This document shows positions 4,739-48,562 of a stretch of 64,000 nucleotides of DNA, piece by piece. A program made the position numbers and the translations under genes. This stretch comes from a virus, in the IMG/VR virus record IMGVR_UViG_3300043449_002675, positions 27,969 through 91,968 of that record. One strand, 5' to 3'. The notes under the pieces are model-generated. The model was not told where the DNA came from. It worked only from the letters and a program-made list of their open reading frames with translations, and did no database searches. Within the stretch, counting starts at the first letter, position 1. Each line of letters begins with the position of its first letter.

Positions 4739-6979
4739 ATGGCCGGAAATCCTTTTATGCCCCGTCAAGGTTATGCTATTGCAGATCAAGGCGATGATGA
4801 TAGATTATTGAAACTTGAAGAGAAAATGTTTCGAGTCGAGGAATTCATAAATCTGGCAGAACAAACAAAAGATACACAAACTGATATTAATCAAGGCTCA
4901 TATGGTGTGTTTCTTGGCTACTGTGTAGACACACTCGATATTTACAAACAAAATAGAATACGATTCTTTTGCCCTTTGTTTCATCGTCCTGACACACCTA
5001 TAGGCAGCTTGCCATTTGCGCTGCCAATTACCAATTTTGGCGGCATTGATGATTGTGGTGGCAACTGGGTGCCTCCAGCAGGCTCTACTGTAGCTTTGGT
5101 TTTTGAAGGCGGAGACAGATTGAGCCCGTTTTATCTAGGCACAACTTGGACAAGACTTAATGGAGGGTTGTTTCAAGGCGAATATTACAATATTCCCATG
5201 ACAGAATATGATTTGTTGTACAAGGGGCAGAGAGGAGGCTATTTGTGTGGTCCTAATAATGGAACGCAAGTTCTGCCACCTTGGAATACTGAGAGCTATA
5301 ACGGCTTTGACATCACCTCTGTATCTGATATAAACAATGCTCCCAATTTATTGCAGAAAATGACGTTCCCTAACATTTATGGATTCAAAACACCTCAAAA
5401 ACACATGTTTAAGATGGTGGATGGAGATGCCAAGTGTAATCAAAAGTGGAAAAGAATAGAAATATTATCCGGATGTGGAAACTGGATGATCATGAAAGAT
5501 GATCACTTACACTATTGTGGACAGTGGGCACATCCAGTATGCGGTGCCGTTCCGGGAGATACTAGTTGTCAGGTTGGTATAGTAAATCCCCCTCCACAAA
5601 CAGCCATAGATGCTAATGGCGTACTGGTTCCAGCCGAACCTGCCGGCGGATCAAATGTTTTTAGTTCGGAAGTTAGCGAAATAGAAGATGCATATGCGAC
5701 TATAAATTTCTTCGGGGAAAAGAAAGAAAACCCGTCCGGATCTTCATTATGTGGCGGTAGAACGATTGGCGGGAATCCAGACTATCCGGGCAAAAATACA
5801 CAGAGAGGTGCAAATCCTTTTTTCAAACAACAAAGTGAGTGCCGCCCATATCGTGGACCGCAAACACCACAAAATAACAAATGTGACTTACCACAGTCTG
5901 GCATTCAGTTATTAAGCATCTCTGGTCACACCTTTGTTATGGATGATTCTGTCGAAGCTCCTCAAGGTGGCATGGAGTGGCAAAGAAGTACGCAGCCTTT
6001 TGATTTCGGTTGCACAAACAAATATCTTGGAAGAACCTATTGGAAAAGCAGCACGGGACATCAAATAGTTTTAGATGACAGCGAATTAATGGGTTCTGCC
6101 AAAGAAACAAGAAGTATTAACAACGGCATTCAGTTGCTCACAGCTTTAGGAAATCAAATTTATCTTTCCGATTCATCTGCCGGCCCTACATGTCCAAGTT
6201 TGGCAACTGAGCAGCAGGGTATAAGCGTAAGAAGCACCAGCGGTCATAGATTGATCATGAGTGACAACAATAATGATCGCCAAATCCCTTGCAGGAAAGG
6301 ATATGGCTATCCAAATCCGCAGAATAATGCCAAAAATGCTTACATCGAAATGCGTAGCGGTTATGGGCTAGCTTTGGAGATGTTCGATGGAGCAAGTCAA
6401 AAAGAGGCTAGTGACGATACTTACATGCGATTGCTGGCACCACAAACTGGCAATGATAGAGGTCCTCATTTTCTTCAATTCCAAGAAAGAAAGAGTCAAA
6501 ATGGCTATGTTCTTTTGAGGGCAGGAGGAGATTATAGGTTAGAAACCTTTGGCGGCGTGTCTGAAATTATCGGATTCAGCGACAGTCAAAATAGTGTTGG
6601 TAACAGAGTTACACAGATCAAAAACAACAGTTTTGAACTGGTAAATCAGACTCGCTATCAAAAAAATGCATTAAATCTAAACATAAGTGATACTAAATCT
6701 TTAATTTTGGCTGGAAAAGACTACGATCAAAAGCCTTCTAAAGAACAATTACAAGCTGAAGAGGATGCCAGAGCAGCCGGTTTGCCCGTTCCGCCAAGGG
6801 AAAAAGTCCCGAATGTATGCCCAGTTGTGGTTTTTGACGGTGCGAGAGGCTTATTGGTATGCAGCGATAGGGTTTTTGCTAGTGCGAGCCCTAATGCACC
6901 GCCTGCAAGCATATTCAATTTAACACCTTTGACGCCTTATAAGAATATTGATGAGTTCAAAAAAGCTCTTAAGTCATAA
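4739..6979 (+). CDS. Baseplate central spike, gp5/VgrG-like with N-terminal OB fold
   Basis: D...NRIRFFCP...VPPAGSTVALVFEGGD..PFYLG OB-fold motif; repeated SGH.F/I.MDD beta-strand motifs. Confidence 0.75.
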   Translation: MAGNPFMPRQGYAIADQGDDDRLLKLEEKMFRVEEFINLAEQTKDTQTDINQGSYGVFLGYCVDTLDIYKQNRIRFFCPLFHRPDTPIGSLPFALPITNFGGIDDCGGNWVPPAGSTVALVFEGGDRLSPFYLGTTWTRLNGGLFQGEYYNIPMTEYDLLYKGQRGGYLCGPNNGTQVLPPWNTESYNGFDITSVSDINNAPNLLQKMTFPNIYGFKTPQKHMFKMVDGDAKCNQKWKRIEILSGCGNWMIMKDDHLHYCGQWAHPVCGAVPGDTSCQVGIVNPPPQTAIDANGVLVPAEPAGGSNVFSSEVSEIEDAYATINFFGEKKENPSGSSLCGGRTIGGNPDYPGKNTQRGANPFFKQQSECRPYRGPQTPQNNKCDLPQSGIQLLSISGHTFVMDDSVEAPQGGMEWQRSTQPFDFGCTNKYLGRTYWKSSTGHQIVLDDSELMGSAKETRSINNGIQLLTALGNQIYLSDSSAGPTCPSLATEQQGISVRSTSGHRLIMSDNNNDRQIPCRKGYGYPNPQNNAKNAYIEMRSGYGLALEMFDGASQKEASDDTYMRLLAPQTGNDRGPHFLQFQERKSQNGYVLLRAGGDYRLETFGGVSEIIGFSDSQNSVGNRVTQIKNNSFELVNQTRYQKNALNLNISDTKSLILAGKDYDQKPSKEQLQAEEDARAAGLPVPPREKVPNVCPVVVFDGARGLLVCSDRVFASASPNAPPASIFNLTPLTPYKNIDEFKKALKS

Positions 6980-7467: not shown

Positions 7468-9057
7468 ATGGCGGAACTTTGTCCTTTTGAAGTAGCACCG
7501 ACAAAAATCACATCAAGCCCGAATCGTCCAACACCCGTTAGTTTAAACTATACGAACCAAGATTTTTGGTCGTTGAAAAATCGACTTGTCCAGTATTGCA
7601 GAGAAAATTTCGATCAGCAATTTAATGATTTTATAGAATCTAGCTTGGCTATCATGCTTATAGAAAACTGGGCATTTATCGGAGATACTCTCAGCTTTAA
7701 AACAGACCAAGTGGCAAATGAAGTTTTTATTGATACAGTGACAGAACTTGACAGTGCTTTCAGGTTGGCAAAACTAGTCGGATATCAACCAACGCCGCCA
7801 ATAGCCGGTAAGAGCTTGTGGTCAGCAAAAATAAATACTCCACAAGATATAAATCTCATTATACCAACACCTTTAGAAATCGACTTGGTTAACAACAATA
7901 TTCCTCTAACGATAGAATTATTCCCAGCTGATCAGTATGAAAGACCTTTGTTGGATCAGCCAATTATTATTCAGGCTGGTAATTTACAGAACACAAATAT
8001 TGTAGGACTAGAGGGGCAGACCTATACGCAGTCATTCATAGGCACTGGGGAAATAAATCAAGTAGTAGTGCTTGAATTTGCGCCAGTGCTTTTGGGAAGC
8101 ATTAGAGTTTACGTTGATGGACTTCAATGGAAACAAGTTCAATTCTTTACGGAAAGTGCGCCATTACAAGAATATAGAATTGAATACAATAGCCAGTATC
8201 AGGTGTTCGTATATTTTGGGAATAATAGAGCTGGCTTAGTACCACCAGCTGGTGCCAATATAACTGTGGTTTATAGAGTTGGCGGAGGAACTATAGGAAA
8301 TATAGTAAGCAACTTCGTAAATACTGACATTTTGATTCCTTTGGAAGGCAGGGCTTACTCTGTACCAGTAAACTTCAGCAATTACACAAGGGGCAAGTAT
8401 GGATATGACGGCGACACAATTGAAGACATAAGAAGAAACCTTCCTGCTTGGACAAACGTGCAGAACAGAGCTGTAACTGGTTCGGATTACAAGAACTTAG
8501 TAGATATTTTCACAACTGCCTATAACGGTAAAACAGGAAAAGGGTTGGCCGCTTTAAGGCATAGTGGTTGCAGTGCGAATCTTATAATATTATATGTTTT
8601 GGTATCTGAGGGATTGGATGGTCTTGCGCCTCCTAGTTCACAATTCAAGGCTGAATTACAAGAATATATCGATGCGAAAAAAATGTTAACTGACAGCATT
8701 GCTATACAAGACGGCGGGGTTCTTTACACTCAAATCAACATCGATGTATTTATGACACCTCAATATCAGCCATTTGAGGAAGAAGTTACCGCTGCCATTT
8801 TGCGAAACTTGGCAGTATTCTTTAATGTTAAAAACTGGGATTATGGACAAGCTTTGAGAACGATTGATGTGTTGAAGGCCTTGGCAAATATTAGTCAGCC
8901 TTACAAATATGACATACAATTTGTCGTTGAACCAGAAAATTTGACTAGCCCACTGCTTCCAAACAACCCGAACCTAACTAATCCTGTAGAGGTAGTGCCT
9001 AGGTTTTTTGAAATTATCAGACCAAGTAATATTGTTTTGAATTACATTTACGAATAA
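7468..9057 (+). CDS. Baseplate wedge subunit, gp6 / baseplate J-like
   Basis: NYTNQDFWSLK...LAKLVGYQP; FGNN..G..PP; YRVGGG..GN; QNRAVTGSDY. Confidence 0.88.
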   Translation: MAELCPFEVAPTKITSSPNRPTPVSLNYTNQDFWSLKNRLVQYCRENFDQQFNDFIESSLAIMLIENWAFIGDTLSFKTDQVANEVFIDTVTELDSAFRLAKLVGYQPTPPIAGKSLWSAKINTPQDINLIIPTPLEIDLVNNNIPLTIELFPADQYERPLLDQPIIIQAGNLQNTNIVGLEGQTYTQSFIGTGEINQVVVLEFAPVLLGSIRVYVDGLQWKQVQFFTESAPLQEYRIEYNSQYQVFVYFGNNRAGLVPPAGANITVVYRVGGGTIGNIVSNFVNTDILIPLEGRAYSVPVNFSNYTRGKYGYDGDTIEDIRRNLPAWTNVQNRAVTGSDYKNLVDIFTTAYNGKTGKGLAALRHSGCSANLIILYVLVSEGLDGLAPPSSQFKAELQEYIDAKKMLTDSIAIQDGGVLYTQINIDVFMTPQYQPFEEEVTAAILRNLAVFFNVKNWDYGQALRTIDVLKALANISQPYKYDIQFVVEPENLTSPLLPNNPNLTNPVEVVPRFFEIIRPSNIVLNYIYE

Positions 9058-9066
9058 TGGTGAGAA

Positions 9067-12000
9067 ATGCCGCTGAAACCGTACAATCAGAATCCTAAAA
9101 CATCAGATAATATTCTGTTTGATCTTTATACTCCCATGTCAAATGGCTGCTTTACTCAACAGCCATCAACTTTTGATTCAATAAAGATTTTCTTTATTGC
9201 TAGAAGTCCGGTTTTGAATAATGAATTTGAAAATCAACAAATTACTTACAAAGAAGATTTGCAAAGAGCTGTGTATGAAGTTACTGAGCAATATTGCACA
9301 GAAACTGATGAGTTGAGAAAACAAAGACTGGCTCTTTTACAACAAAGTCTGGAGACAGATTTGGCCACAAATGCTTTGACTCCCACAACCGGAACTAATG
9401 TCGAACCGGGAGCAAACACAAATACAACATATTACTACGAAGCCCAAATGGTATTTTGTGCCGGTGTTGCTTGCGATAATGGAGCAGGTCCATTGTGGAT
9501 ACAGGGAGAAGATAATAGTACATCTATAGTGCAGAGGGTGGCTACTGATAAAGAATTAGGTAATGGACATTTTGCATTTATATGGGAGCCCGGTCCAATT
9601 AAGGAAGGTGATTATTACATTTGTTACGGCTACACCATGCAGACATCTGCGTATTTATACAAATCCGAGGCTAAGTTTTTGCACTTTTACATCGGAGCGG
9701 CAATTCAAAATGAAGTAGCCATACCGACCCACGCCGTTCCTCCTGAAAAATATTTCACTCTTCTTAATGCATATCTTCCCCGAATGTATTTTGAAAAATA
9801 TGCAGTGAACGACGATAGCATGCTTACCTTGGAAGCTTTAAATAAATCAGTAGGAAAGGCATTTACAGACCTAGACAACCAAGTTTCCAGAATTATTGAT
9901 ATATTAGACGCAAATGTAACACCAGAACCATACTTGCCGCTTTTGGCACAAATGTTTGCCTTAAAGCTTAGAAGTTTGGATATTACAAGATGGAGAGGGC
10001 AAATTATAACAGCTGTCCCTCAATTTAAGAAAAAAGGAACGCTAGAATCTCTGACACAGGCGTTAGATCAAGCAGGCATGCAATTGCTTCAGTACAAACA
10101 ATATTGGCAAATAGCGTGGCCCCAAGTTTACACTCAAACCTTGAAATTTGAAAACGATTATGAATTTATTCTCGATAAGTACACAGACAATACACTGTTC
10201 TATGAATTTGCAAGCCTTTATGAACTACAACTTGCCCATGTCGGCACTACTGTTTGGACCAGCACAAATATTGCCGCAATATCTTTTTCTCAAAATACTA
10301 AAGGCGAAACAGTTTTAACATGGGATCCAACTATTACGCAGCTTAAAGGTGGCGATCAGATATTGATTACATACGTTACTGAAACCATGACTGGCACGCA
10401 AGTAGATTTATATCAATACTGGAAAGACTTCTTTGTTCGTCAGGATATCAGAGTGCAGAATCCAGACGGTTACTTCTTAATTACACCCGAAATGCAGCCG
10501 GCTAATTGGAACATGAGACTGATGCCAAAGGATGATCCTTTGTTCTCTGTGTTTATTCCAATTATGAATCCTTTTTATGATCCAGTGATTTTCGGCATGC
10601 TTAGAACGGACTTTCCATATAGCGAAAATGTCTATAACATGGAAGAATATAATGGCAGCCTTCGTCCAACCACCGATCCTGCTAATATGGCAGCTGATTA
10701 TCTAGAAGGCTGTAGCGGTACACTAAGTGCCGATTATGGTCTTGCCGTAAAGATACAAAACCTCTCAGATTTTAGGATTTCGGAATGCCTTGGAATAATT
10801 AGAGAGTATACTCCTTACCATGCCATATTAAGAACTTTAGAGGTTGTTGGGCAAATACAAGATTTCATGTTGCCACCAGTGGAAACAATAGAGTGGTTAA
10901 TACAAATTACTTTTAATGACTTCTTGATTGCAGGGGATGCTCAATATGCTTTCAATAGAAAATCAATCTTATATAATTACACTCCGGAAGTGTATACTTA
11001 CACTGATGGGCATGGCAAACTAGCATTTTACAGAACAGATTTTGCCACCGAAAACACTACACCAGCTGCTCAAGGCACACTTACGGTTTATAACAAGTCC
11101 ATGGTGTTACAAGCTCAAAGTAATATAAGAAATTTAAACAGCTATAACGTCACAAAAAATAGTTGTTATCTTGAAATCTTGGATGGAAATTATGCTGGGG
11201 CATATACAAACATAATAGAATCTATAAATGACTTTTCACTTACAATTGAAGGCCCTGCGGCTGCAGCTTTTGCCGGAATGGCTCCCATAACACAAAATTA
11301 CACATTTGGATGGCGATTTTCAAACATTTTAGATAACGGACCATACACCATATCAAACGCATATCAGTTCACCATTTCTGATAGCTCAATTAACTACAGC
11401 GATTACAATATAAAAACTGTTGCACTAGATGGAACTGGTTGTTACCAAGTTAAAATTGGCGCAGCTTATTACAACATATTGTTGATCAATAACAATTCTT
11501 TGTATTTAGAAAATCAGAGTGGCAGCCCATTGCCAGCAACTGATTCTACCGGATTAAATTATGAGGTATACAATCCAAGTGGCATGCAGCTTATTTTTGA
11601 GTCTACTACTGGCGACTTTAAAGTATGCAAGCTGGCAAAGGTTACTAGCACAGCTGGTACACCATTCAGCATGACCAATATGTGTATAGTTGTTCCAAAT
11701 CCTGAAATTTATTTTTCACCGGATGCCGGAACTAATTTTTATAAGTTCTATTCTATTGACGTAAATGATCCTAATTCGTTTTACATTTTGGACTACACGA
11801 TTGGTTTAACACCTTCATCTGTGACTGGCACTGTGTACAACAGATTATTTGAAACCATGGGTTCATTTAATTTCGTTGGAATGGTCGCTTCATACGGTTC
11901 ATGGCCTCTATTTGCAGATCCAGATGTTGCCGTATTGCAAAACAGCAATTTCCCATCTCAGTATATTCTAACTTTAGATCCTGCTGGTGCTAATCCATAT

Positions 12001-12384
12001 AGCTACAGAATTGGTGTGGACTTTACAACAAACCCGCCGTTATTGATTGATATATTTGGATATTTTATATTTGCTGGTACTCCTGATACCAATGTTGCTG
12101 GAGAAACTTTTACATTTGAACTAAATAAATTTAATCTTATAGAGGAGCCGGGCATAGTGCCTATTATGAATGGTCAAACACTCTATTATGTAAACAGAGC
12201 TGGGCAATCTGTGTGGGATTCACAAACTACTGGGGCTGGTGGATTTATGATGGCTATGAACAAAATGTCGAGTGAAAATCAATCAGCCGGTCATCCTAGC
12301 GATGTAATAATGGCGCAGGAAGGCATTTCATTTGTTGTGCAGACAAAAGATGGCGAAGTCAAACAAAGCGGAGAAATAAAATGA
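9067..12384 (+). CDS. Large baseplate wedge protein (gp7 / P2 gpI-like domain)
   Basis: ILDANVTPEPYLPLLAQMF...FKKKGT gpI-like segment; follows the gp6-like gene. Confidence 0.6.
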   Translation: MPLKPYNQNPKTSDNILFDLYTPMSNGCFTQQPSTFDSIKIFFIARSPVLNNEFENQQITYKEDLQRAVYEVTEQYCTETDELRKQRLALLQQSLETDLATNALTPTTGTNVEPGANTNTTYYYEAQMVFCAGVACDNGAGPLWIQGEDNSTSIVQRVATDKELGNGHFAFIWEPGPIKEGDYYICYGYTMQTSAYLYKSEAKFLHFYIGAAIQNEVAIPTHAVPPEKYFTLLNAYLPRMYFEKYAVNDDSMLTLEALNKSVGKAFTDLDNQVSRIIDILDANVTPEPYLPLLAQMFALKLRSLDITRWRGQIITAVPQFKKKGTLESLTQALDQAGMQLLQYKQYWQIAWPQVYTQTLKFENDYEFILDKYTDNTLFYEFASLYELQLAHVGTTVWTSTNIAAISFSQNTKGETVLTWDPTITQLKGGDQILITYVTETMTGTQVDLYQYWKDFFVRQDIRVQNPDGYFLITPEMQPANWNMRLMPKDDPLFSVFIPIMNPFYDPVIFGMLRTDFPYSENVYNMEEYNGSLRPTTDPANMAADYLEGCSGTLSADYGLAVKIQNLSDFRISECLGIIREYTPYHAILRTLEVVGQIQDFMLPPVETIEWLIQITFNDFLIAGDAQYAFNRKSILYNYTPEVYTYTDGHGKLAFYRTDFATENTTPAAQGTLTVYNKSMVLQAQSNIRNLNSYNVTKNSCYLEILDGNYAGAYTNIIESINDFSLTIEGPAAAAFAGMAPITQNYTFGWRFSNILDNGPYTISNAYQFTISDSSINYSDYNIKTVALDGTGCYQVKIGAAYYNILLINNNSLYLENQSGSPLPATDSTGLNYEVYNPSGMQLIFESTTGDFKVCKLAKVTSTAGTPFSMTNMCIVVPNPEIYFSPDAGTNFYKFYSIDVNDPNSFYILDYTIGLTPSSVTGTVYNRLFETMGSFNFVGMVASYGSWPLFADPDVAVLQNSNFPSQYILTLDPAGANPYSYRIGVDFTTNPPLLIDIFGYFIFAGTPDTNVAGETFTFELNKFNLIEEPGIVPIMNGQTLYYVNRAGQSVWDSQTTGAGGFMMAMNKMSSENQSAGHPSDVIMAQEGISFVVQTKDGEVKQSGEIK

Positions 12385-13750: not shown

Positions 13751-13798
13751 AATTCTTTTTAAAATATGTTCTAATTGTTAGTCTCAAGGAGGCTTTCA

Positions 13799-14323
13799 AT
13801 GATTTATTTTGAAAAAGATTTAAATTTGACCATCGGAATTCTAGCAGCAAACAAAACATTTGAGCAAATACGAGCAACTTATGAATCTCTTGGTGTACTT
13901 AAGTACCCAGTTCAGAGACTTGTAAATGTGCCAGAAGATTATGATATAACCGAACTTAAAAACAGAAAATATAATTTTATTCAAAAGGGCAAAACGCTAA
14001 CAAGCCTAATAGATGGTTTGTGCAAAGAGGCCAAGACAGAATGGATTTATTTTGCATTCGCAGGAAGAAAAGTGCAAAAAAACATTGATAGCAAATATTC
14101 AATTTATGCAAGCGATTATAAGAATGTGATATTTCCTGTAGTAAGGAGGGTGTGGAATTTTGTTGACGGGTCTATGGACGGTCTTTTGATAAACAAAAAG
14201 TTCCATGAAGAGGTTGGCGAATTTGGTGATGGGGATGATTTGGAAATTACTAAGTTAATGTGGGCCGGAAAAGCCGTCGAAAAGGGCGCAAAATTTAAAG
14301 CTATAATAGGAGCAGCATACTGA
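13799..14323 (+). CDS. Hypothetical protein, possibly a degenerate GT-A (glycosyltransferase family 2)-like fold
   Basis: LTIGIL...LTSLIDGLCKEAKTEWIYF...GLLINKKFHEEVGEF; no clear DxD motif. Confidence 0.35.
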   Translation: MIYFEKDLNLTIGILAANKTFEQIRATYESLGVLKYPVQRLVNVPEDYDITELKNRKYNFIQKGKTLTSLIDGLCKEAKTEWIYFAFAGRKVQKNIDSKYSIYASDYKNVIFPVVRRVWNFVDGSMDGLLINKKFHEEVGEFGDGDDLEITKLMWAGKAVEKGAKFKAIIGAAY

Positions 14324-14967
14324 TGGAAATACTCGAAAAAGCAGCAAAAATACTCGAAGAATGCTATCTTCCATCTTGCCACTCTAATTTCCAAATTAAA
14401 AACTTTATTATTGGCAAAGAGAGCAGCAGGATAGGTAAAATTTGGCAGGCTGTTAGGGAAATACAGACGAGAAGGGAATCACTTGCTAATTTAGCAAATG
14501 ATCTAGAAGAAATAAAAGATAACATAGAACTTGCCAAACTAGATGTTCAAGAAGAAAGTTTTGTAGAAGCCAGCGACCAAGATCCTGCAAAAGAGAGTAT
14601 TTTACAGGCAAGGAAAGAAATAAATATACGCAAAAAAGAACGAGCGCTTAAGAAACTATACGTTGCTCAGAATGGATTATTGACCCAGCAGAATAATATG
14701 CTGAATGAATTATCGGTGTTTTTGGAAGTTTTTGACAAACTTGGCGGTATAGAAGCCTTCAAAAACTACAATGAAGAAGATGCTCAGGTTGAATATTGGA
14801 AGGGAAAATTCGAAAGGGAATTTATACTTTCTAGCATTCTACAGCAACCAATGAGTCCAGAATTCATAAAAAGTTGTCTTGCTTTAGCTGAAAACGCCAA
14901 AATGAGCGAAAATATTGGAGCTACGCTCGATATTATTAATAAAAAACTGTTAAATCAAAATAACTAA
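14323..14967 (+). CDS. Coiled-coil hypothetical protein
   Basis: Heptad-rich ORF, translationally coupled to the upstream gene. Confidence 0.55.
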   Translation: MEILEKAAKILEECYLPSCHSNFQIKNFIIGKESSRIGKIWQAVREIQTRRESLANLANDLEEIKDNIELAKLDVQEESFVEASDQDPAKESILQARKEINIRKKERALKKLYVAQNGLLTQQNNMLNELSVFLEVFDKLGGIEAFKNYNEEDAQVEYWKGKFEREFILSSILQQPMSPEFIKSCLALAENAKMSENIGATLDIINKKLLNQNN

Positions 14968-14972
14968 TATAT

Positions 14973-16034
14973 ATGCCAGTAGATAAGTTAGCATCAAATG
15001 ATTCAGGATATGAAGTAGGCGATCTGTCACTTTATCCCACAGCTATTGATTCATACTTTAATTTGTATGAAGCACAAAACAATAGCACAACAATACTTAA
15101 GTCTAGTTTGTCAGTTACTGGTGATGTATTGGTGGTAGAAAGTACCGATTCTTTTCCCAGTCAAGGCATTCTTAGGCTTTCTCTGCCAAATAAAAAAGGC
15201 TTGTCTGTAGAATACATTTATTATGCGCATAAAACAAATAACACTTTCTATAATCTAAAAAGGGGATTTTTGGGAAATGAACGCAATCTTATTAGCAAAG
15301 TAAATAACTGGCCCACAAACACGGTGGTAGAGTCTGGAGTTTTTGCAGAGCATCATAATGCTGTAAGAGATGCTGTTTTAAATACGGAAAACTTTGTTGG
15401 ACTAAGAAACCCTTACAGTACAGAAACAAACAGTTTTGTAACTACAACAGTAAATGGTTTGTTGACAGATTTAGAGTACAGGTATTTAGCACCTAACGCA
15501 GTTTTCAGAGCTTTTCCTTTATATGGACCGCCGCCTTTAACAGTAAATTTTCATTGTTTTACAAACAGAATAGTTAATAGATTTTTCTGGGATTTTGGTG
15601 ATGGCGGTGTTTCTATCCAAAAAAATCCTTCGCACACATACCTTAAGACGGGTATTTTCCCTGTGCAGCTTAGGGTTATATCTGACGTGGGCGGACAAGG
15701 TGTCACTACTAAAATGGGATATATTAATGTCAGCAACCAGTATGTAGTGCCGTTCGGATATGTTATGCCCAATGTTGGCATAAGTATTCAAACAGCCACT
15801 GAAACGTCTACAACTCCAACAACATTTACATTTTATGATCAGACAGACGGACCAATCATCAACAGACTATGGCAATTTGGAGACGGACAAAATAGCTTTC
15901 AAGAAAATCCTAATATTCACGTTGTAACACATCAATATCAAAGACCGGGAATCTATAAACCTTCTGTTTTGATTACAATCGAGGATAATATTACAACAAG
16001 AGCAATTTTTGAAGAAACAGTAGAGGTATCATAA
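14973..16034 (+). CDS. PKD-domain virion protein (paralogue 1)
   Basis: Two PKD motifs (WDFGDG, WQFGDG); N-terminal domain ending in AEHHN. Confidence 0.8.
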   Translation: MPVDKLASNDSGYEVGDLSLYPTAIDSYFNLYEAQNNSTTILKSSLSVTGDVLVVESTDSFPSQGILRLSLPNKKGLSVEYIYYAHKTNNTFYNLKRGFLGNERNLISKVNNWPTNTVVESGVFAEHHNAVRDAVLNTENFVGLRNPYSTETNSFVTTTVNGLLTDLEYRYLAPNAVFRAFPLYGPPPLTVNFHCFTNRIVNRFFWDFGDGGVSIQKNPSHTYLKTGIFPVQLRVISDVGGQGVTTKMGYINVSNQYVVPFGYVMPNVGISIQTATETSTTPTTFTFYDQTDGPIINRLWQFGDGQNSFQENPNIHVVTHQYQRPGIYKPSVLITIEDNITTRAIFEETVEVS

Positions 16035-18250
16035 TGTCGATACCATCAGTAGTGTATCCAGATCAATACGACACAACTACAACATTGTATAATGCTGTTG
16101 ATGCATTGGTTATAACTTTGGCCAAGGATTATAATCCAAATGATACCACAATATTTGTGACTGTAAATCCTTATATCATGTCTAGATTTCCGGAAACTGG
16201 CATAATAACATTGACCGAAAACTGCAGCGATCCTGCTTTACGTGCAGTATCATTTTATTATGGCACTAAAAACAATGAAGGGTTTTTCTTCACTGATTTG
16301 ACAATTTTGCCAGAAACCCCTGATTCTTATAAGCCAAAAGTTTCCACCACAGTATCCCTGAGCGTAACAGCACAACATCACAACAATATAAAAGATGCTA
16401 TAATATCAACCGAAGAATTTATTGGACTTGAAAGTGATATTTCTTATATTCCATTTGAAGGTTCTATTGCGGCTAGAACTAAGTTTTTGTTTGAATCAGT
16501 TTTTACTCCGAGAGCGTGGTTTGTAGCAGACAAAAGAATAGGAAGAGCACCATTGTTTGCGGTTGTATTTACTAGTTCCAGCTTGTATTTGGGAGAGCAA
16601 ATAAACGGCAATACCGTAACTTACGAATGGGATTTTGGCGATGGGGGCACATTTACTAGTACCAATAAAACCGTAGAACACACTTATATGTTGCCGGGTA
16701 TTTATACGGTTTCTTTAACTGTTACAAACATGTTTGGCGCAGATACAGTAACATTTGCTAATTATATTGACGCACTTTGGTTGGCTCCGGAGACAGCCGA
16801 AATTGAATTTTTAGTAGAGGCTGGGCAAAAAGATTTTGATTCTGGCGGAAATGATTTTATAAAAACGCCTACTGGTGTTTATGTTTACATGGGCACTAGT
16901 AATGAAATTGATCCATTAGATCCGACAAGAACTTATAGTGGGGCACATGTAGAAAGCGGCGATGTAATAGATCCCATAAATAATTTCCAGTGGGATTTGG
17001 GTGATACACTTTCTCATGGTAATGATCCTAATACTAAGGCACTTTACACTATCGGTGGAATTTATGAAGTAATACTTCGATGCACCACGGAATCGGGAGC
17101 ATATAGGATTACCACTGATTCTAAAACTATAAACGTAATTGAAAGGCAGAATGCTTGGTTGTTTGTAACCCCCACTACAGATCCGCCTTTAGCAACAGGT
17201 ACCGTATATGCTGGAGAACTTGGCTTTTTAAATGAAACATTTAAACCACTCCAAAACACCGCATACGTTTATATAAGGAATGCAAGCTTCATAACCGATT
17301 CGTCACATCTAGACAAACCCAGAATGTTGCTTGAGTTTGAGAGGAATACCAATATAAATGCGAGAAGCACAGTGCCCTCTGGTTTACAGGGGCAAGCAAT
17401 ATTGTCTTGGGCAAGCGGCAGAAATCTAACAGACTTGCCAAGTACTGAAAAAATAAGCTTTGTGGCCTTTAGTGGTTTTGACGAGGCTTATTCCGCTGTA
17501 AGCTGGGAAATTACCAGATGCTGGAACTGGATTGCATTCAATGGTACTGGCGTTACTTATTACCTATTAGGCAACGCTCAAAGTCAACCACCAAATACAA
17601 GTCCTGTTGATTTAACACTCGTATCAAACAATCTTTTGGCAGGAACTTATCAAACAGATTTAACTTTTTCAGCTGGAAGTTTTGCTGGTGCCTCAAATAC
17701 CCTTTCATACAACGCAGCTCAGTATGACGGTACAGGATATAACGTTTATGGAGCATACAGCGCATACAGATATGCATTCAGAGGAAGAACTGGCTATATT
17801 TTAAAAAACCTAACAGTAGGCAGCAATTTTAAGATCAACTCATTTTACAGCACTACTGAAAGTGGAAATGGAATAATTACCGGCTTCAAGAAATTGCCAG
17901 ATATGGGTGGGCCAGTAAAAACACAAGGTGTCTTGTTAAACCTAACTACAGGACTGTTTTTCTTCAATAATAGCGGAAGCGTTCTGCAATTTGATGTGAC
18001 GGCAAATGTGTGGAAAACTGGCGGTCCCGGTTACAATTCAGTTGCTTATACTAACTTACAAGACACATCTGTTCCAAATTATGATGATGAAAATAATAGT
18101 CTAGTTGGAACAACTGATTTTGGCGACAATGCATTTTTATCTTTTGATTACAGCAATAACGCATTTATGAAGTTTAACGATATTGATTTAACATTTACAA
18201 AGCTAAATAGCAGACCGGAAGGTGAACAATGGATTTTTGGAAGCTACTAG
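16034..18250 (+). CDS. PKD-domain virion protein (paralogue 2)
   Basis: WDFGDG and WDLGD PKD motifs; AQHHN; beta-rich C-terminal region. Confidence 0.8.
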   Translation: MSIPSVVYPDQYDTTTTLYNAVDALVITLAKDYNPNDTTIFVTVNPYIMSRFPETGIITLTENCSDPALRAVSFYYGTKNNEGFFFTDLTILPETPDSYKPKVSTTVSLSVTAQHHNNIKDAIISTEEFIGLESDISYIPFEGSIAARTKFLFESVFTPRAWFVADKRIGRAPLFAVVFTSSSLYLGEQINGNTVTYEWDFGDGGTFTSTNKTVEHTYMLPGIYTVSLTVTNMFGADTVTFANYIDALWLAPETAEIEFLVEAGQKDFDSGGNDFIKTPTGVYVYMGTSNEIDPLDPTRTYSGAHVESGDVIDPINNFQWDLGDTLSHGNDPNTKALYTIGGIYEVILRCTTESGAYRITTDSKTINVIERQNAWLFVTPTTDPPLATGTVYAGELGFLNETFKPLQNTAYVYIRNASFITDSSHLDKPRMLLEFERNTNINARSTVPSGLQGQAILSWASGRNLTDLPSTEKISFVAFSGFDEAYSAVSWEITRCWNWIAFNGTGVTYYLLGNAQSQPPNTSPVDLTLVSNNLLAGTYQTDLTFSAGSFAGASNTLSYNAAQYDGTGYNVYGAYSAYRYAFRGRTGYILKNLTVGSNFKINSFYSTTESGNGIITGFKKLPDMGGPVKTQGVLLNLTTGLFFFNNSGSVLQFDVTANVWKTGGPGYNSVAYTNLQDTSVPNYDDENNSLVGTTDFGDNAFLSFDYSNNAFMKFNDIDLTFTKLNSRPEGEQWIFGSY

Positions 18251-18266
18251 GTAGACAGGGGTAAAT

Positions 18267-21200
18267 TTGGGAACTATACTGCCAAATTCGAATTATCCTA
18301 AGACTTATGATACGGATACAAGTCTGTTTCAGGTGTATAACACCTCGCAAACCGTACTGTCTGCAACTCTAAATTCTTGGCAAACCTCCATAAACATAGT
18401 GCCAGTAGCTGTTGGAGAACCTGAGTTATGGGCTAACTCTGGATACGTGACTATTGAAGGAGAGCTAATATATTACGCCTCTGTTCACTTGGATGTGAAT
18501 GGCAAAGTTGACAAGCTTTTAGAATGCATAAGAAGAACTAATGGTACTGTGCCAAGAAATTACCCCGCTGGCACTCCTGTTCGTGGGTTTGTAATAGCAC
18601 AACACCATAACAATCTTGCACAGAGTATTGTTAATGTTGAAAACTTTGTTGGAACTTTGACTACAACAGATCAAGATACTATTTACTGGAAATTGCAGCA
18701 AATTGCGAACCTGCGTCCATTAACTGACGATTCAGGATGTCCGCAAATTGAATTCTATTACAGGGTCATTAGCACGAGTCCTATTGAAGGAACGGAAATT
18801 TCCTATAGTTTGAATATTATTGGAAATATAAACAATTTTTTGATAGATTTTGGTGATGGCACTACTGAATCAACCACCCAAAACGGTACGCACTTTTATG
18901 CGCCAAATAAACGCATAGATCCAAGTGTTACAGTAACAACTGACGAATGTGATTGCTTGCAAACTAGCGCAGAAAGACTTAGAATAGACGATTTGGCTCA
19001 AAATACAATTGCTGGTCAAACGACTTTTCCAGTTATTGTGCCGCCAATTCCGGACTTCCCGAATTTGGATTTGGCAGTTGTAAATGAAGTGCCAAACAAC
19101 ATACAGTTCCCACCTATAGTTTTCCCTTGTTTGGATATTGGTCCATTCGGGCCAATAGTTGTTCCTAGCACAATTAGTATTGTTAATCCGTATCCAATTC
19201 CAAGTGTGATCACGTTTGAAGACGTGCCTGTATTCCCAAGTCAGATAGTAATTACAAGTTCTGTGGTTATACCCACAAGAATAAGCATAATTGGCAATTT
19301 GCCTAGTACACTTAGTGTTATTGGCAACATACCAAGCACAATCAGCGTTGTTGGAATTCCTTCAACTATAAATGTAGTTGCGCCAAGTAATTTAAATATA
19401 GGCATAAGTGTAATTAATACCGTCCCATGTACAATTTCAGTAATTGGCAATATACCAAGTGTTATAGCCATAGATGATTTATCTGCTTCGCTTGACGTAT
19501 TTCTAAATGGCGACTATTGCACAAATTGTACTGGTAGTACCGGTTGTTCGAATAATGGACAAACTATACAGGCTATTACAGATATAGGTTGCGACCCTTG
19601 TGCTGGCGCAAATCCAAAAATTACAAGGGTCACGGTAGTATTACATGACTTTATAGTTACTACCTTGGATCCTGCCAATCCAGAATCTACAAGATACGAT
19701 TTAGTAAAAGTCTTGATTGTTGCACCTGATGGCACAAATTGTTTGGTTATGGGAGGTGCTCAAACTGGAGCAACAACCTTCCCAGACTACACAATGAATG
19801 AACCAGTGACCCTTACATTCGCTGACGGTTCTAACAATAACATTTACGATTTTACCAAGCCCTTAGAAACAAAAACTTATGCTCCAAATGCAAATGGGAA
19901 TAATGCTTCTTACACCGCTGGTCAAGTAAATTTAGGTCTTCCAGCTCCTCCGCCTACTGGGGCTACTGGGTATGGGACAAATTTGGCAGTATTTACTGAT
20001 TCCAAGTTGCAGAAGGGTCCTTGGTATGCCTACATTTCCGCAGGTCCGAGAGGCGGGGCATATACAAATATAGTAAACGTTGGGAAAGTTTGTGCTAGAG
20101 TAACTTCGGCTCAGGAATCTCCTTGTGATTTCCCATCCCCAACGCCGACATCTACTGCAAGAGTCACACAAACTCCAGTTGCAACTCCGAGGAAAACACC
20201 ATTACCGACACCTCTTCCTTCTCAAAGTCCGGCTCCTACTGCTACGCCAAGACCAAGTCCTTCAGCAACTCCATTTCTACCATTTGATTTGCCAACGCCG
20301 GGACCCAACGTTACACCAATAATTCCCCCCAGACCTCAACCACAACCCACACCACCTCCCAGACCCTCAGGCACTCCCGGACCAACTCCCGCTCCTTCTG
20401 CAACCTTTACATGTGGCACATGTACTTATGTTCCACAATTAGAGGATTGTGGTTCTGGTGTTTGCACTTATTATTGGGATGGAAGCAGCTGGGGCAGATG
20501 CGGAGAATGCACTTCTTGCGGTAGTGCGGGAGAGAACTGCGGATGTCAAGAAGCAAGAATAATGCGTGCATTTAACATTCTGCCGCCTGACGGAGAAGAT
20601 AACCCTGACGTAAACACGAATTGTTACAAGGTAGTTTGGACTGATCAGTCATTGACTGATTGCAATGGTGGTTTTTGTACTTATAGTTTCAATATGACCA
20701 CCAAACAATGGGATTATTTCCCAGAAGATTCTTTTTGTAGTGGTACCGGTGACAATGCCTGCAAGTGCCAAGATGCCAACAAGATTTTGGTGCCAGCCGG
20801 AATACTTCCACCAAATCCCGGCACAAATGAAACAAAACACACAAATTGTTACAAAGTTGTTAATTCGTTAAATAACTGCACAGCGGGTAGTTGTGAGTGT
20901 CCGCCTGCTCCTACTTCTCAGTTCATAACAGGCTCCACACAACAGTTGAAATTAAATTGTGTACCAGAATGCGGACGTTGTTATAATTACTGGTCTGTAA
21001 ACAAAGGCGCTCCATGTGATCCTGATCCTGCAGATTATGGTTGCAGCTACGAGTATATTGATGACGGATGGGAACGCATAAACAATTTTTGTCCTTGCGA
21101 GAATTTTGAATGTTTGGATGCCGATATAGCTGTATCTGAAGGGCTATTGACACCAGTAGGGGAGCAGGGAGAAATCGTAAGATTATCTTGTTATCAAGCA

Positions 21201-22928
21201 AGCTGGTATCACATAGACGATTGTGACCCAGAAATTGGTGATTGTCGTTGTCCTCCGACACCAACCCCTCCAGCAAGTGGTGCAAATGCAGGCAAAATAT
21301 ATTTAGAGGAAGCTTGCGTCCATCCAACTTCGACACCAACCCCAACCCAAGGATGCGGATACTGCGAATATCAGTGGCAACCAAACGCATGTCCTACCGG
21401 CGGATTTTGTATTTACACATATTACGCTGCTGTTAATGGCTGGGAAAGGGTTAGTGATTGCCAAGGAGGATGCGGATGTCCAAGCATAGAAATTTTAGTT
21501 GATGGCGGAGTTTTACCTATACCATATACCGATGGAGCCAAAGTTTCTATGAATTGCCTGCCCCCACCGGGACCTTACGCTGGCAATTGGGGTCTTTGGT
21601 ACAACGGATGTACAACTAATGATTGCAAATGTCCAAACGAAACTCCTCCAGTTCAAGGGCAGTATTTCAACCAAAGATGGAATTTGAATTGCGAAATTAA
21701 AACGACGCCAACACCAACACCATCAGCTTCTTCTGGATGCGATTGCAACATAGTTGGTTCGGCATGTGGATGGCAGTGTCAAAATAGCGGTGGAACTTAT
21801 AAGTGGGTGAAATTACAAGATGGCTGCAACTTATTCTGTGCGGCTGGCTCTTGTCAGTGTATACCGCCATCAGGACCATGCTCCGCTTCTACTGAGGGTG
21901 AGGTTTCGCAAACAAAATGCACAAATATCGGCACTGCCACACCTACACCCATGCCAACCACACCTCCTCCTACACCGAGTCCTTCATTGGGTGCATGCTT
22001 GGGATGTTTCCTTACATGGAATTACAGTACTAAGACATATGATATAAGCGGAAATAATTGTTTGGCAGCGGGATGTAATGGGTGTTATATTCCTACAGCA
22101 TACCAAGGCCAAAACATAACAATGCCCTGCGCCAACAATCCCCCTGAAAGTAAATGTAGTTCAAAGCCAAGTGAAAGTTGGCCGCAGTATTGTACGTGGG
22201 AGTGTGATGGAGGCGGCAACTGGATTCTTACGTCGCAGTGCGCTGCTGGCTGTGATTGCCCGTATCCTTGGCTTAATTTGTGTAATGCATTTTCAGATGT
22301 TGTTTACGAGCTATGTAGACCAGCAGCTCCTCCAGTGAACTTTGACGGAAATACCTACGTAGATGAGGGACTTCCTTTATCAAACATGTCTGTAAATTTA
22401 GATGAGCCTACCATATCTCCTCCTCCACGCATCATAGCTGAAGGAGTTAAGGTGGAATTGGTTCCAGTCAGCAGGGAACGAGTCAAGCTTTGCAAGTACG
22501 CTGGCAGACAGCCATTAGAGATGGTTAAACAAGGATGCGGCGCATGTGCTGTACGTACTTGTGAAAAATTCGGATTGTGTTCTCACAGTGGTGTCATAGA
22601 GGGCAGAGACGATGTTTATTGCTGTCAAATGTGCGATGAATATGATTCTGGACAACAAGTAAAAATAGAATCATCTCAATCAGCAGAAGCACCCAAGTCT
22701 GCGGCCATAACTACAACTAATAATTCGATAGAAACAAAGAGCGTAGAAAAGATAAATGCACCAGTGGCATCATCAAAAACTTTACCAAAAATTATCGATC
22801 CATTTACTGCAGCAGATGAGTATATGAAGAAAAGTAATATGGTAAAAATTGCGCCAGTCAACTTATCTATTAAAGTAGATGTAGATAACCTTATTGAAGG
22901 CAAAAATGATACGGAGCAAGGCGGATAA
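18267..22928 (+). CDS. Giant modular fibre-like protein: HHN domain, PKD, IPSTISV repeats, P-domain-like module, Pro/Thr linkers, Cys-rich modules
   Basis: AQHHN; IDFGDG; tandem IPS.ISV repeats; PT-rich linkers; about 68 Cys counted by eye in 20412-22316; TTG start. Confidence 0.7.
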   Translation: MGTILPNSNYPKTYDTDTSLFQVYNTSQTVLSATLNSWQTSINIVPVAVGEPELWANSGYVTIEGELIYYASVHLDVNGKVDKLLECIRRTNGTVPRNYPAGTPVRGFVIAQHHNNLAQSIVNVENFVGTLTTTDQDTIYWKLQQIANLRPLTDDSGCPQIEFYYRVISTSPIEGTEISYSLNIIGNINNFLIDFGDGTTESTTQNGTHFYAPNKRIDPSVTVTTDECDCLQTSAERLRIDDLAQNTIAGQTTFPVIVPPIPDFPNLDLAVVNEVPNNIQFPPIVFPCLDIGPFGPIVVPSTISIVNPYPIPSVITFEDVPVFPSQIVITSSVVIPTRISIIGNLPSTLSVIGNIPSTISVVGIPSTINVVAPSNLNIGISVINTVPCTISVIGNIPSVIAIDDLSASLDVFLNGDYCTNCTGSTGCSNNGQTIQAITDIGCDPCAGANPKITRVTVVLHDFIVTTLDPANPESTRYDLVKVLIVAPDGTNCLVMGGAQTGATTFPDYTMNEPVTLTFADGSNNNIYDFTKPLETKTYAPNANGNNASYTAGQVNLGLPAPPPTGATGYGTNLAVFTDSKLQKGPWYAYISAGPRGGAYTNIVNVGKVCARVTSAQESPCDFPSPTPTSTARVTQTPVATPRKTPLPTPLPSQSPAPTATPRPSPSATPFLPFDLPTPGPNVTPIIPPRPQPQPTPPPRPSGTPGPTPAPSATFTCGTCTYVPQLEDCGSGVCTYYWDGSSWGRCGECTSCGSAGENCGCQEARIMRAFNILPPDGEDNPDVNTNCYKVVWTDQSLTDCNGGFCTYSFNMTTKQWDYFPEDSFCSGTGDNACKCQDANKILVPAGILPPNPGTNETKHTNCYKVVNSLNNCTAGSCECPPAPTSQFITGSTQQLKLNCVPECGRCYNYWSVNKGAPCDPDPADYGCSYEYIDDGWERINNFCPCENFECLDADIAVSEGLLTPVGEQGEIVRLSCYQASWYHIDDCDPEIGDCRCPPTPTPPASGANAGKIYLEEACVHPTSTPTPTQGCGYCEYQWQPNACPTGGFCIYTYYAAVNGWERVSDCQGGCGCPSIEILVDGGVLPIPYTDGAKVSMNCLPPPGPYAGNWGLWYNGCTTNDCKCPNETPPVQGQYFNQRWNLNCEIKTTPTPTPSASSGCDCNIVGSACGWQCQNSGGTYKWVKLQDGCNLFCAAGSCQCIPPSGPCSASTEGEVSQTKCTNIGTATPTPMPTTPPPTPSPSLGACLGCFLTWNYSTKTYDISGNNCLAAGCNGCYIPTAYQGQNITMPCANNPPESKCSSKPSESWPQYCTWECDGGGNWILTSQCAAGCDCPYPWLNLCNAFSDVVYELCRPAAPPVNFDGNTYVDEGLPLSNMSVNLDEPTISPPPRIIAEGVKVELVPVSRERVKLCKYAGRQPLEMVKQGCGACAVRTCEKFGLCSHSGVIEGRDDVYCCQMCDEYDSGQQVKIESSQSAEAPKSAAITTTNNSIETKSVEKINAPVASSKTLPKIIDPFTAADEYMKKSNMVKIAPVNLSIKVDVDNLIEGKNDTEQGG

Positions 22929-23808
22929 ACAAGCTATTAAAAGATTGAAGGCCATGGATTCCCAAGGAAATCCTTTGCTTTTGACCTTTAAGAAACATGA
23001 AAATCAAAACGAATATCTTCATTATGGCAATCATTGGATAAGAAATTTCTCTGGGGTGAACATAAATCCAGCGGATATAAATAACTTTTTCAAAAATGAA
23101 GATGTCCGTATTTTGGCAGACAATGAAATAAGAAACAGCAATCACAGATATCCAGTTTTGGAGCCTGACCTATTTAAAAGGTTTCAGGATATACTCATAG
23201 TAGGGGACGGCATAGGTTTTGAAGATCATAAATTAATTAATTACATCAGGCCAAATGTATGTTGTTTCGTTGTAAATCAAGCCGCAAGATTGTGGGAATC
23301 ACAGGTGCAGCCAGAATTTATGCTGGTAAATAATCCTTATGAAACTGTAATGAACAGCATGCCTGTCAGAAACTTCCCGAAGTTAATTGCAAACAGAAAA
23401 ACACATTATCAATTCATAAGATCCTACAGAAACATAATCTACCTTTATGATTCCGTGCCTGATTCAAATTACGAAAGCTCTATCTCCAAGAATACAGACT
23501 TGCATTTTGACGATTATCGCAACCCAATTTGTGCGATAATTAGTTTGGCAAATAAGTATCTTAAAGGTAATGTTTACTTGGCATTTTGTTCTAGTGGTTT
23601 CAAACAGAATCGGGATGCAACTGTTAAAATTGAAGATGGAGTTTATCAATATCCTGTGCAAATTACCGCTGATCAAATAATAGATGGTAATTTATTTTGG
23701 TATAATTTTTCGAACCGAGCATCTAAAATATATCATACTGGTGTTAAAAATAGTTATAAGTTTTCTAAATACTTAACGTTAGATGATTTTATTGGTAACT
23801 TAACATGA
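22894..23808 (+). CDS. MAF/DUF115-like (sugar-transfer-related) protein
   Basis: DILIVGDGIGF...CFVVNQAARLW...PEFMLVNNP pattern resembles the DUF115/MAF Rossmann-like core. Confidence 0.4.
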   Translation: MKAKMIRSKADKQAIKRLKAMDSQGNPLLLTFKKHENQNEYLHYGNHWIRNFSGVNINPADINNFFKNEDVRILADNEIRNSNHRYPVLEPDLFKRFQDILIVGDGIGFEDHKLINYIRPNVCCFVVNQAARLWESQVQPEFMLVNNPYETVMNSMPVRNFPKLIANRKTHYQFIRSYRNIIYLYDSVPDSNYESSISKNTDLHFDDYRNPICAIISLANKYLKGNVYLAFCSSGFKQNRDATVKIEDGVYQYPVQITADQIIDGNLFWYNFSNRASKIYHTGVKNSYKFSKYLTLDDFIGNLT

Positions 23809-26978: not shown

Positions 26979-27008
26979 ATAGGGGCAGAGGAATATCTCT
27001 GCCCCTAT
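26979..27008 (+). promoter_or_regulatory. Translation-initiation-sequestering hairpin overlapping a TATAAT element
   Basis: ATAGGGGCAGAG (26979-26990) pairs perfectly with CTCTGCCCCTAT (26997-27008), covering part of the GAGGA SD and the AT of ATG 27007; TATAAT at 26975-26980. Confidence 0.65.
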
Positions 27009-27948
27009 GTTTTTTAACAATAAAGCTTTTGAAATTACTGTCAGTGGATTTAAAAAAGTTCACAACAGAATTTGCGTGTATCGGGCTGTTGGAGGCCTTG
27101 GCGACATCATAGCTATGCGCATGATATTCGAGGATTTTAAGAAAAAATATCCAAAATTTCACCTTACTTGGGCAGTGCCATACAAATATTTTCCTGTGGC
27201 AGACAAACATCCATTTGTGGATGAATTGATTCATTTAGAAGACTTTAAAAAACACAATTATATCGAAGTGTACGACATCACAACCGCATGCGGCAAATAT
27301 GAAACTATGAATGCCAAGGGCAATTTGAAAAACAGGTCCGATATATGGGCAGAACACTTTGGCTTGAAATTAGACAGTCATAATTTGCACATGCCAAGCT
27401 ATCTGGACAGAAAAGAAAAAGTAATTAAAAGACTAACAGAGCTTGGATGGGATAAAAAAAAGAAATTAGTTGCATTTGCTCCAAGGAGTGCAATTGGTAT
27501 TAAAAATATGACTTTTGAGCAAATTAAAACCGTCAAAGATATGACAAATAAATTTTTTATTTTCTGCCTTCATCACGTGCCAATTTTAGAAGTAGAACAA
27601 GTAGGAATCCCAGCGGTTTACAATTTCAGCCTTCAAGAGTGTTTATGTGCTATAGAAATTTCGGATTTCATGATTTCAACAGACACAGGCTTGATGCATG
27701 CTGCTGCCGGCTATGGAAAGCCAACTTTGGCTACTTTTAGCTTTGTAGACGGAGAAACATACTGCAAATATTACCCAAAGGTACAAATTATACAGCTGCA
27801 TTACAAGAACATAGACAATTGGTGCGGACCATGCTATGATTATTCTAAATGTCCTTATACATCTCAAATTACCACAAAACCGTGCCAATCAGAAATATCT
27901 GCAAAAATGTTGCAAGAAAATTGGGACAAACTATTAAATAGATTGTAG
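27007..27948 (+). CDS. Glycosyltransferase family 9 (heptosyltransferase-like)
   Basis: RAVGGLGDII; HPFVDELI; ISTDTGLMHAAAGYGKPTLATF; C-terminal CGPC...C...C. Confidence 0.85.
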   Translation: MFFNNKAFEITVSGFKKVHNRICVYRAVGGLGDIIAMRMIFEDFKKKYPKFHLTWAVPYKYFPVADKHPFVDELIHLEDFKKHNYIEVYDITTACGKYETMNAKGNLKNRSDIWAEHFGLKLDSHNLHMPSYLDRKEKVIKRLTELGWDKKKKLVAFAPRSAIGIKNMTFEQIKTVKDMTNKFFIFCLHHVPILEVEQVGIPAVYNFSLQECLCAIEISDFMISTDTGLMHAAAGYGKPTLATFSFVDGETYCKYYPKVQIIQLHYKNIDNWCGPCYDYSKCPYTSQITTKPCQSEISAKMLQENWDKLLNRL

Positions 27949-46954: not shown

Positions 46955-46967
46955 TTAAAGGAGATAC

Positions 46968-48544: not shown

Positions 48545-48562
48545 TCTTAATAGGAGTATTAC

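Follow-up and report, generated by a model that had tools for sequence, protein, structure and literature searches.

Can a small protein module come to hold a copy of itself within its own fold? This question is raised by a gene for a fibre-like protein of 1553 amino acids (aa) located in a 64,000-nucleotide stretch of viral DNA (hereafter the window), which represents positions 27,969 to 91,968 of the IMG/VR virus record IMGVR_UViG_3300043449_002675. The complete record comprises 91,968 bases, and its CheckV completeness of 18% implies a genome of roughly 500 kb; the source is an uncultured huge phage. We consider it likely that the protein provides a fibre of the tail or baseplate of this phage with its distal shaft, and that this shaft is built of self-nesting modules with six cysteines each. 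A first-pass annotation of the same DNA had described about ten recurring six-Cys units in the region 20412-22316, with whole copies seated in the hairpin of other copies, and the analysis reported here upholds this description.

The segment 20412-22316 corresponds exactly to aa 716-1350 and contains 68 of the 90 cysteines of the fibre (10.7% vs 2% in aa 1-715). Ten modules can be delimited in it: four inner modules (I1 to I4), three outer modules that are split by them (O1, O3 and O4), and three uninterrupted modules (U5 to U7). O1 holds both I1 and I2, while O3 holds I3 and O4 holds I4. A module measures about 55-60 residues, its first and last residues are cysteines, and it follows the pattern C1-x(2-8)-C2, a Tyr/Trp-rich β-hairpin, C3-x(3-6)-C4-x-C5, a loop or short helix, a last strand and C6. 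The two inserts attributed earlier to the first outer unit are found in O1, where both end in TNC-YKVV (aa 783-790 and 858-865), and the reported PTPTP linkers have their counterpart in Pro/Thr-rich linkers between the super-units, i.e., between the outer modules with their inserts (aa 1020-1027, 1146-1152 and 1224-1240); a PPTPTPP stretch is also present within O3. The modules are listed below, together with scores from profile hidden Markov models (HMMs), Smith-Waterman z values, and strands predicted by AlphaFold with their predicted local distance difference test (pLDDT) values.

20412-20447, plus strand: N-terminal half of O1 (aa 716-727), with CGxC and the outgoing strand
20448-20624, plus strand: inner module I1 (aa 728-786), 8 Cys; 66 bits with the inner HMM, z 8-16 vs the other inner modules
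20625-20660, plus strand: connector YKVVWTDQSLTD between I1 and I2 (aa 787-798), for which AlphaFold predicts a down strand and then an up strand
20661-20849, plus strand: inner module I2 (aa 799-861), 6 Cys; 73 bits with the inner HMM
20850-20960, plus strand: C-terminal half of O1 (aa 862-898), return strand YKVVN, then C-x4-CxCP, with the last Cys at the end
20970-21014, plus strand: N-terminal half of O3 (aa 902-916), predicted strand aa 903-917
21015-21191, plus strand: inner module I3 (aa 917-975), 6 Cys; predicted hairpin, helix and strand, pLDDT 74-88
21192-21317, plus strand: C-terminal half of O3 (aa 976-1017), predicted strand aa 975-986; its alignment to I4 and U5 crosses the join
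21354-21389, plus strand: N-terminal half of O4 (aa 1030-1041), predicted strand aa 1032-1039
21390-21557, plus strand: inner module I4 (aa 1042-1097), 6 Cys; 15.1 bits vs the outer HMM
21558-21692, plus strand: C-terminal half of O4 (aa 1098-1142), predicted strand aa 1106-1113, pLDDT about 82
21738-21920, plus strand: uninterrupted module U5 (aa 1158-1218), 10 Cys
21996-22157, plus strand: uninterrupted module U6 (aa 1244-1297), which corresponds to a split outer module in unbroken form
22191-22316, plus strand: uninterrupted module U7 (aa 1309-1350); 10.5 bits vs the outer HMM, with 0 of 300 shuffles as good

Are these modules related to each other, and do the halves of an interrupted module belong together? 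A BLASTP search of the module region against itself returned the identity hit only; similarity was assessed instead by Smith-Waterman alignments with shuffled controls, by HMM scores and by hhalign, using profiles built from 13 members of the fibre family. The inner modules resemble one another (z 3.8-16, with 0-1 of 200 shuffles as good), as do the joined outer modules (z 5-6.4), and the latter are also related to U5. Between inner and joined outer modules the pairwise similarity is weak, yet the best alignments cross the join. The joined O1 reaches 14 bits with the inner HMM and I4 about 15 bits with the outer HMM, results that none of 300 shuffles equalled in either case; the scores of O3 and O4 are lower. 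When the inner profile was compared with the joined-outer profile by hhalign, the two aligned with a score of 27.5 (P 7.9e-6) over 40 columns that begin at the first strand, span the join and end at CxCP, and the controls (one reversed and 14 column-shuffled comparisons) scored between 5.9 and 14.3. The outer halves thus align to the inner-unit profile across the join, so that the proposed nesting withstood this comparison.

The same data bear on a rival explanation, according to which there is no true nesting: each stretch of approximately 115 residues, consisting of a CGxC strand, an inner unit and a CxC tail, would form a single integrated domain that was copied as a unit, with the outer module as no more than its N- and C-terminal trimmings. 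The weak pairwise similarity between inner and outer modules fits such a domain, as does the finding that the nested super-units are kept as blocks in every homolog, the extras of the homologs again being whole super-units. In addition, AlphaFold extends the N-terminal strand of O1 into the first strand of I1 as one continuous strand of 20 residues. However, the joined outer halves match not only the inner profile but also the contiguous module U6 end to end; a U6 profile derived from nine homologs aligns with the joined-outer profile from C1 to C6 over 45 columns (hhalign P 1.9e-5). It also speaks against an integrated domain that O1 holds two inner modules but O3 and O4 one each.

A further argument against an integrated domain comes from the homologs. 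A search of 5.8 billion proteins retrieved 12 full-length relatives of the fibre with identities of 33-98% over the module region, and no Cys of the nested part varies among these 12 proteins. In one of them, P0013, module I2 is interrupted at its hairpin turn by a segment of 68 residues with six cysteines (aa 882-949), an extra module that is not present in the other twelve proteins of the family. The inner HMM, which was built without the interrupted I2 of P0013 and hence without its insert, recognizes the insert (13 bits) and, separately, both flanking halves of I2. The insert is closest to the I3 module of P0013 itself (score 86, z 11.9); a copy of I3 was hence inserted into I2, a module that already resides inside O1, so that three levels of nesting are reached. 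The variable number of inserts and the gain in P0013 indicate that inner units come and go as independent modules, and wholesale duplication of one integrated domain appears unlikely to us. The hallmark of a homotypic nested array, namely a module that is split by another member of its family, is hence found both in the profile comparison (hhalign P 7.9e-6) and in P0013. The modules are not identical copies, however, but fall into an inner and an outer subtype; these differ after the CxC motif, where the inner subtype has a short helix and the outer subtype a Pro/Thr loop.

The structural side of the nesting was approached with AlphaFold models of aa 895-1150, computed from an alignment of 13 sequences, and of aa 705-1470. 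The shorter model has a mean pLDDT of 71, with values of 74-88 for the inner modules and 66-82 for the arms of O4; in the longer model, the values range between 60 and 84 across the nested part and drop to less than 50 beyond residue 1145. For each inner module, the prediction shows a hairpin, a short helix and a final strand. The outcome was not a string of purely sequential domains; long strands flank every insert: aa 903-917 and 975-986 in O3, aa 1032-1039 and 1106-1113 in O4, and aa 718-737, 781-792, 794-809 and 856-866 in O1. U5, U6 and U7, which lie in the low-confidence part of the model (pLDDT <50), are predicted to form plain hairpins where the outer modules carry their inserts. Across the family, the arm lengths are fixed and matched (8 vs 8-9 residues in O1, 11 vs 10 in O3), which fits the needs of a two-stranded stalk closed at both ends. 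From the strand positions and arm lengths we infer that the split outer halves may pair as such a stalk. Taken together, three independent lines of evidence support the recursive insertion of the module into hairpins of its own kind: the alignment of the joined halves, the insert of P0013, and the predicted strands together with the arm lengths.

Several points weigh against this interpretation and need to be considered along with the limited inner-outer similarity described above. O3 reaches a mere 2 bits with the inner HMM, and 31 of 300 shuffles are as good. The models rest on a shallow alignment (13-17 sequences) and have predicted template modelling (pTM) scores of 0.28-0.40, in addition to the low pLDDT (<50) after residue 1145. 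What they provide are strand positions, and the strands that DSSP assigns to the outer arms could pair with strands of the inner modules instead. The protein is made in a reducing cytoplasm, and no thiol oxidase, thioredoxin or DsbA was found on the contigs at hand, which cover 7-18% of their genomes. Finally, binding of the fibre to a host and its presence in the virion are predictions.

Does the module belong to a known family? No Pfam family was found for aa 716-1553 by hmmscan of seven sub-regions at E values up to 10, EGF and Laminin_EGF (PF00008, PF00053) included, and sequence searches of the PDB with the protein and with the family profile produced matches to Pro/Thr linkers only. Foldseek returned nothing at E<=0.001 from the PDB and nothing usable from BFVD. 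A wide VIA-align fold search with these models of moderate confidence yielded a best Z of 4.2 and no EGF entry, and no usable relative was present in the ESM Atlas. phmmer against 1.84 billion representatives found four proteins only, all from the same fibre family, and a tblastn search of phage records matched just the N-terminal 230 aa of the fibre, in a 595-kb uncultured phage. On the 92-kb contig, an HMM search confines the modules to the fibre gene. As far as sequence and fold comparisons can tell, the six-Cys module is an orphan that was previously undescribed, and the literature surveyed describes no fibre in which some ten six-Cys modules are combined or in which a module sits inside another of its kind.

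The cysteines themselves require an explanation. They occur in even numbers in almost all super-units across the homologs, and P0013 gains exactly six of them with its extra module; such even counts fit about three disulfides per module, and disulfide locking of the modules is plausible from the sequence pattern. An alternative is that the cysteines mainly bind metal, for instance zinc held by the CGxC and CxC pairs, which do resemble zinc knuckles. The reducing compartment in which the protein is made, the missing oxidase on the available contigs, and a C-terminal domain with eight cysteines and one histidine that looks like a metal site (see below) are compatible with this alternative. However, six cysteines per module are not divisible into four-ligand sites, the first two cysteines of the inner modules are 4-8 residues apart and thus not in knuckle spacing, the modules lack conserved His or Asp ligands, and both the even Cys counts and the placement of a Cys at either end of the module speak against metal ligation. 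We consider a predominant role in metal binding a serious, though less likely, alternative. A second alternative, the enzymatic cross-linking of the cysteines, e.g., through thioether bridges formed by a phage-encoded radical S-adenosylmethionine (radical-SAM) enzyme, is prompted by a gene of no known function that overlaps the fibre stop codon and whose position is kept in related phages. Since no radical-SAM gene was detected on the contig, an estimated 18% of the genome, and the protein encoded by the overlapping gene has neither a Pfam match nor a CxxxCxxC motif, this alternative is very improbable.

With disulfides as the preferred assignment, it should be noted that searches of the 92-kb contig and of two related contigs detected no genes for Erv1/ALR, thioredoxin, DsbA or radical-SAM enzymes; their absence is weak evidence, since these fragments cover only 7-18% of the respective genomes. 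A weak thioredoxin match (12.9 bits) in the L002 counterpart of the open reading frame (ORF) 14323-14967 was dismissed, as the protein is helical and lacks CxxC. This ORF encodes 214 aa, is positioned upstream of a gene for a 353-aa PKD-domain protein, and occupies the same position in L002. Virion proteins leave the cell by lysis and normally lack a signal peptide. The missing signal peptide, which had been called unusual in the first-pass annotation, is consequently no anomaly, and disulfide bonds have been described in the tail of the freshwater phage Pam3, namely in its baseplate and fibres (PMC9942802). The two cases differ in scale, as the cyanophage Pam3 possesses a handful of inter-subunit disulfides (PMC9942802).

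How could such an array be assembled? As a module begins and ends with a Cys, its two ends probably adjoin, and its hairpin tip tolerates extra sequence; adjoining ends together with a tolerant tip mean that one copy can sit at the hairpin tip of another. An interrupted outer module would then become a two-stranded stalk that bears the inner module as a knob, and three such super-units, one of them with two knobs, would be strung on Pro/Thr hinges and be followed by three plain modules. We infer a branched shape of the fibre from this arrangement. The 68 cysteines could form about 34 disulfides once the virion reaches an oxidizing medium, which would stiffen the fibre. In a bolder version of this proposal, the self-inserting block, with its clamped ends and permissive hairpin tip, is copied into other copies of itself and thereby lets phage fibres grow side branches (to depth 3 in P0013), and the approximately 34 disulfides form only outside of the cell with the help of the invariant C-terminal 8-Cys, 1-His domain, which would serve as a built-in redox or metal-dependent folding aid. 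We regard this version as a long shot; if true, it would amount to a novel route of oxidative folding for a virion protein and to a naturally occurring stalk-and-knob scaffold for display.

The distribution of sequence conservation along the fibre suggests a division of labor. Mean identity of the homologs to the protein of the window is 60% in the N-terminal parts, 58% in O1, 45% in O3, 34% in O4 and 15-36% in U5-U7. In place of U5, most homologs possess a fifth super-unit of an outer module with its insert, and in some relatives (P0004, P0010) unrelated domains replace U5-U7. A fixed N-terminal anchor combined with a progressively variable, exchangeable tip is typical of receptor-binding fibres. 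The conserved nested part would accordingly act as a scaffold or spacer, with host specificity probably residing in the variable modules beyond residue 1150.

Domains nested in their own kind are rare, and a solved precedent was found in the Si3 insertion of the β' subunit of cyanobacterial RNA polymerase, which contains eight sandwich-barrel hybrid motif (SBHM) domains, several of them built from distant segments of the chain (PMC10895346). Si3 and the phage fibre have in common that copies of one small β domain are not arranged in simple tandem but contain like domains inside them. In contrast to the phage module, the SBHM domain is devoid of cysteines, Si3 is part of a cytoplasmic enzyme, and its nesting is deeper. 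No sequence or fold match between the SBHM and the phage module was found, and the latter, predicted as a hairpin-helix-strand unit of approximately 58 aa, does not resemble an SBHM; Si3 may thus best be viewed as an analogue of the phage module and not as a fellow family member. The ultralong third complementarity-determining region of the heavy chain (CDR-H3) of bovine antibodies carries a small Cys-rich knob atop a long two-stranded β-ribbon. This stalk-and-knob architecture (PMC10213618) is the nearest analogue in shape. In the antibody, the stalk belongs to an immunoglobulin domain and the knob is unrelated to it, whereas stalk and knob of the phage fibre would be modules of the same kind that are repeated along the fibre.

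EGF-like modules are likewise small C..C..C..CxC..C units that are strung in rods and are able to hold another domain. They differ from the phage module in the position of their main hairpin, which lies between C3 and C4, whereas the Tyr/Trp-rich hairpin of the phage module lies between C2 and C3; the CxC motif is formed by C4 and C5 in both. Laminin-type EGF modules are interrupted by the laminin IV (L4) domain, a guest unlike the host module. Host and guest are thus different in kind in laminin, whereas they are the same in the phage protein. Compared with these examples, the present case is small, Cys-rich and phage-borne, and it resembles phage receptor-binding fibres in its location in a baseplate operon, in an N-terminus common to neighboring fibre genes, and in a variability that rises toward the tip. 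It also brings natural controls with it: U6 is uninterrupted, inserts occur singly and in a pair, and one homolog reaches a third level of nesting, so that it becomes practical to ask why a fold is able to take up its own copy. The stalk-and-knob arrangement might in addition be of use as a compact scaffold for display, and the fibre raises the question of how a protein made in the cytoplasm comes to hold roughly 34 disulfides.

Outside the module array, the fibre gene and its product consist of the following parts.

18267-22928, plus strand: whole fibre gene (1553 aa), TTG start, AGGGG-type ribosome-binding site 7-12 nucleotides upstream
18267-18986, plus strand: N-terminal adaptor and weak PKD-like domain (aa 1-240), common to two upstream fibre-like genes
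19014-19496, plus strand: shaft of short IPSTISVIG-type β repeats (aa 250-410), read from the sequence and kept in the homologs
19497-20126, plus strand: conserved globular domain of no known family (aa 411-620), 60% mean identity in the homologs, without a Pfam match
20127-20411, plus strand: long Pro/Thr-rich linker (aa 621-715)
22467-22646, plus strand: C-terminal domain with 8 Cys and 1 His (aa 1401-1460), the highest conservation in the protein

The conservation of the fibre among its homologs sets in at residue 3. The globular domain contains a Cys cluster (CTNCTGSTGC, CDPC) and the stretch VVLHDF, YDLVKVLIVAPDGT; the latter is vaguely reminiscent of the P-domains of proprotein convertases, a resemblance without a Pfam match at E 10. 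The C-terminal domain displays the motifs KLCxYAG, CGxCAxRxC, GLCSH and CCQxC, a mean identity of 69% and a fixed length, and the modules that just precede it are the most variable ones. No relative of this domain was found in Pfam, the PDB or the Atlas, and outside the fibre family it occurs only in fragments cut at contig ends. It may represent a metal site, an aid to assembly or a conserved tip.

The fibre ORF is encoded inside a block of baseplate and tail-fibre genes, whose members upstream of it, together with the gene directly downstream, are as follows.

4739-6979, same strand as the fibre gene: spike protein with a PF04717 OB domain
7468-9057, same strand: baseplate wedge protein, phrog_219
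9067-12384, same strand: P2-I-like baseplate protein (Tail_P2_I)
14973-16034 and 16034-18250, same strand: two PKD-domain proteins, directly upstream of the fibre gene
22906-23808, plus strand: gene for a protein of about 300 aa; its ATG lies 20 nucleotides before the fibre stop and overlaps the last codons, with the same arrangement in L001 and L002

The first approximately 230 residues of the fibre resemble the N-termini of both upstream PKD proteins, and an HMM of this N-terminus matches the two ORFs at 1e-9 and 9e-9. An anchor domain is thus common to three fibre-like proteins, among which the 1553-aa protein comes third and is the largest. The three consecutive genes at 14973-22928 (353, 738 and 1553 aa) have in this shared domain an AxHHNN motif followed by a PKD-type domain, and they look like different fibres that dock on the same kind of site. 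The PKD family PF18911 scores 17-21 bits at aa 181-226 of the fibre, below the Pfam cut-off of 27, whereas both upstream paralogs score above it.

The product of the overlapping downstream gene (22906-23808) has no Pfam match at E 0.1; an earlier label as MAF/DUF115-like thus finds no support in the profile search. An IVGDGIG motif is present in this protein. In the related phage L001 (847-11109), two tandem fibre paralogs (1714 and 1702 aa), each with a TTG start, are followed by the same overlapping gene of approximately 300 aa.

Some further features of the window were noted. The minus-strand ORF 20923-21390 was treated as spurious, as it sits within the conserved fibre gene, and the GT-A-like label for ORF 13775-14323 lacks a supporting Pfam match. 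A foreign origin of the GC-rich stretch in the fibre gene was likewise rejected: the G+C content at third codon positions (GC3) is 0.25-0.36 throughout, and the rise lies in the second positions (GC2), where it reflects the amino-acid content. A second GC-rich stretch (46001-50000; 0.45-0.49 vs about 0.38) spans the ORFs 46968-50002, and the cysteine-module HMMs gave no match in it. A glycosyltransferase family 9 match at 27007-27948, barely above the cut-off with 23.6 bits, is located 4 kb downstream of the Pro/Thr-rich fibre. Lastly, one 127-kb contig carries members of both fibre protein clusters.

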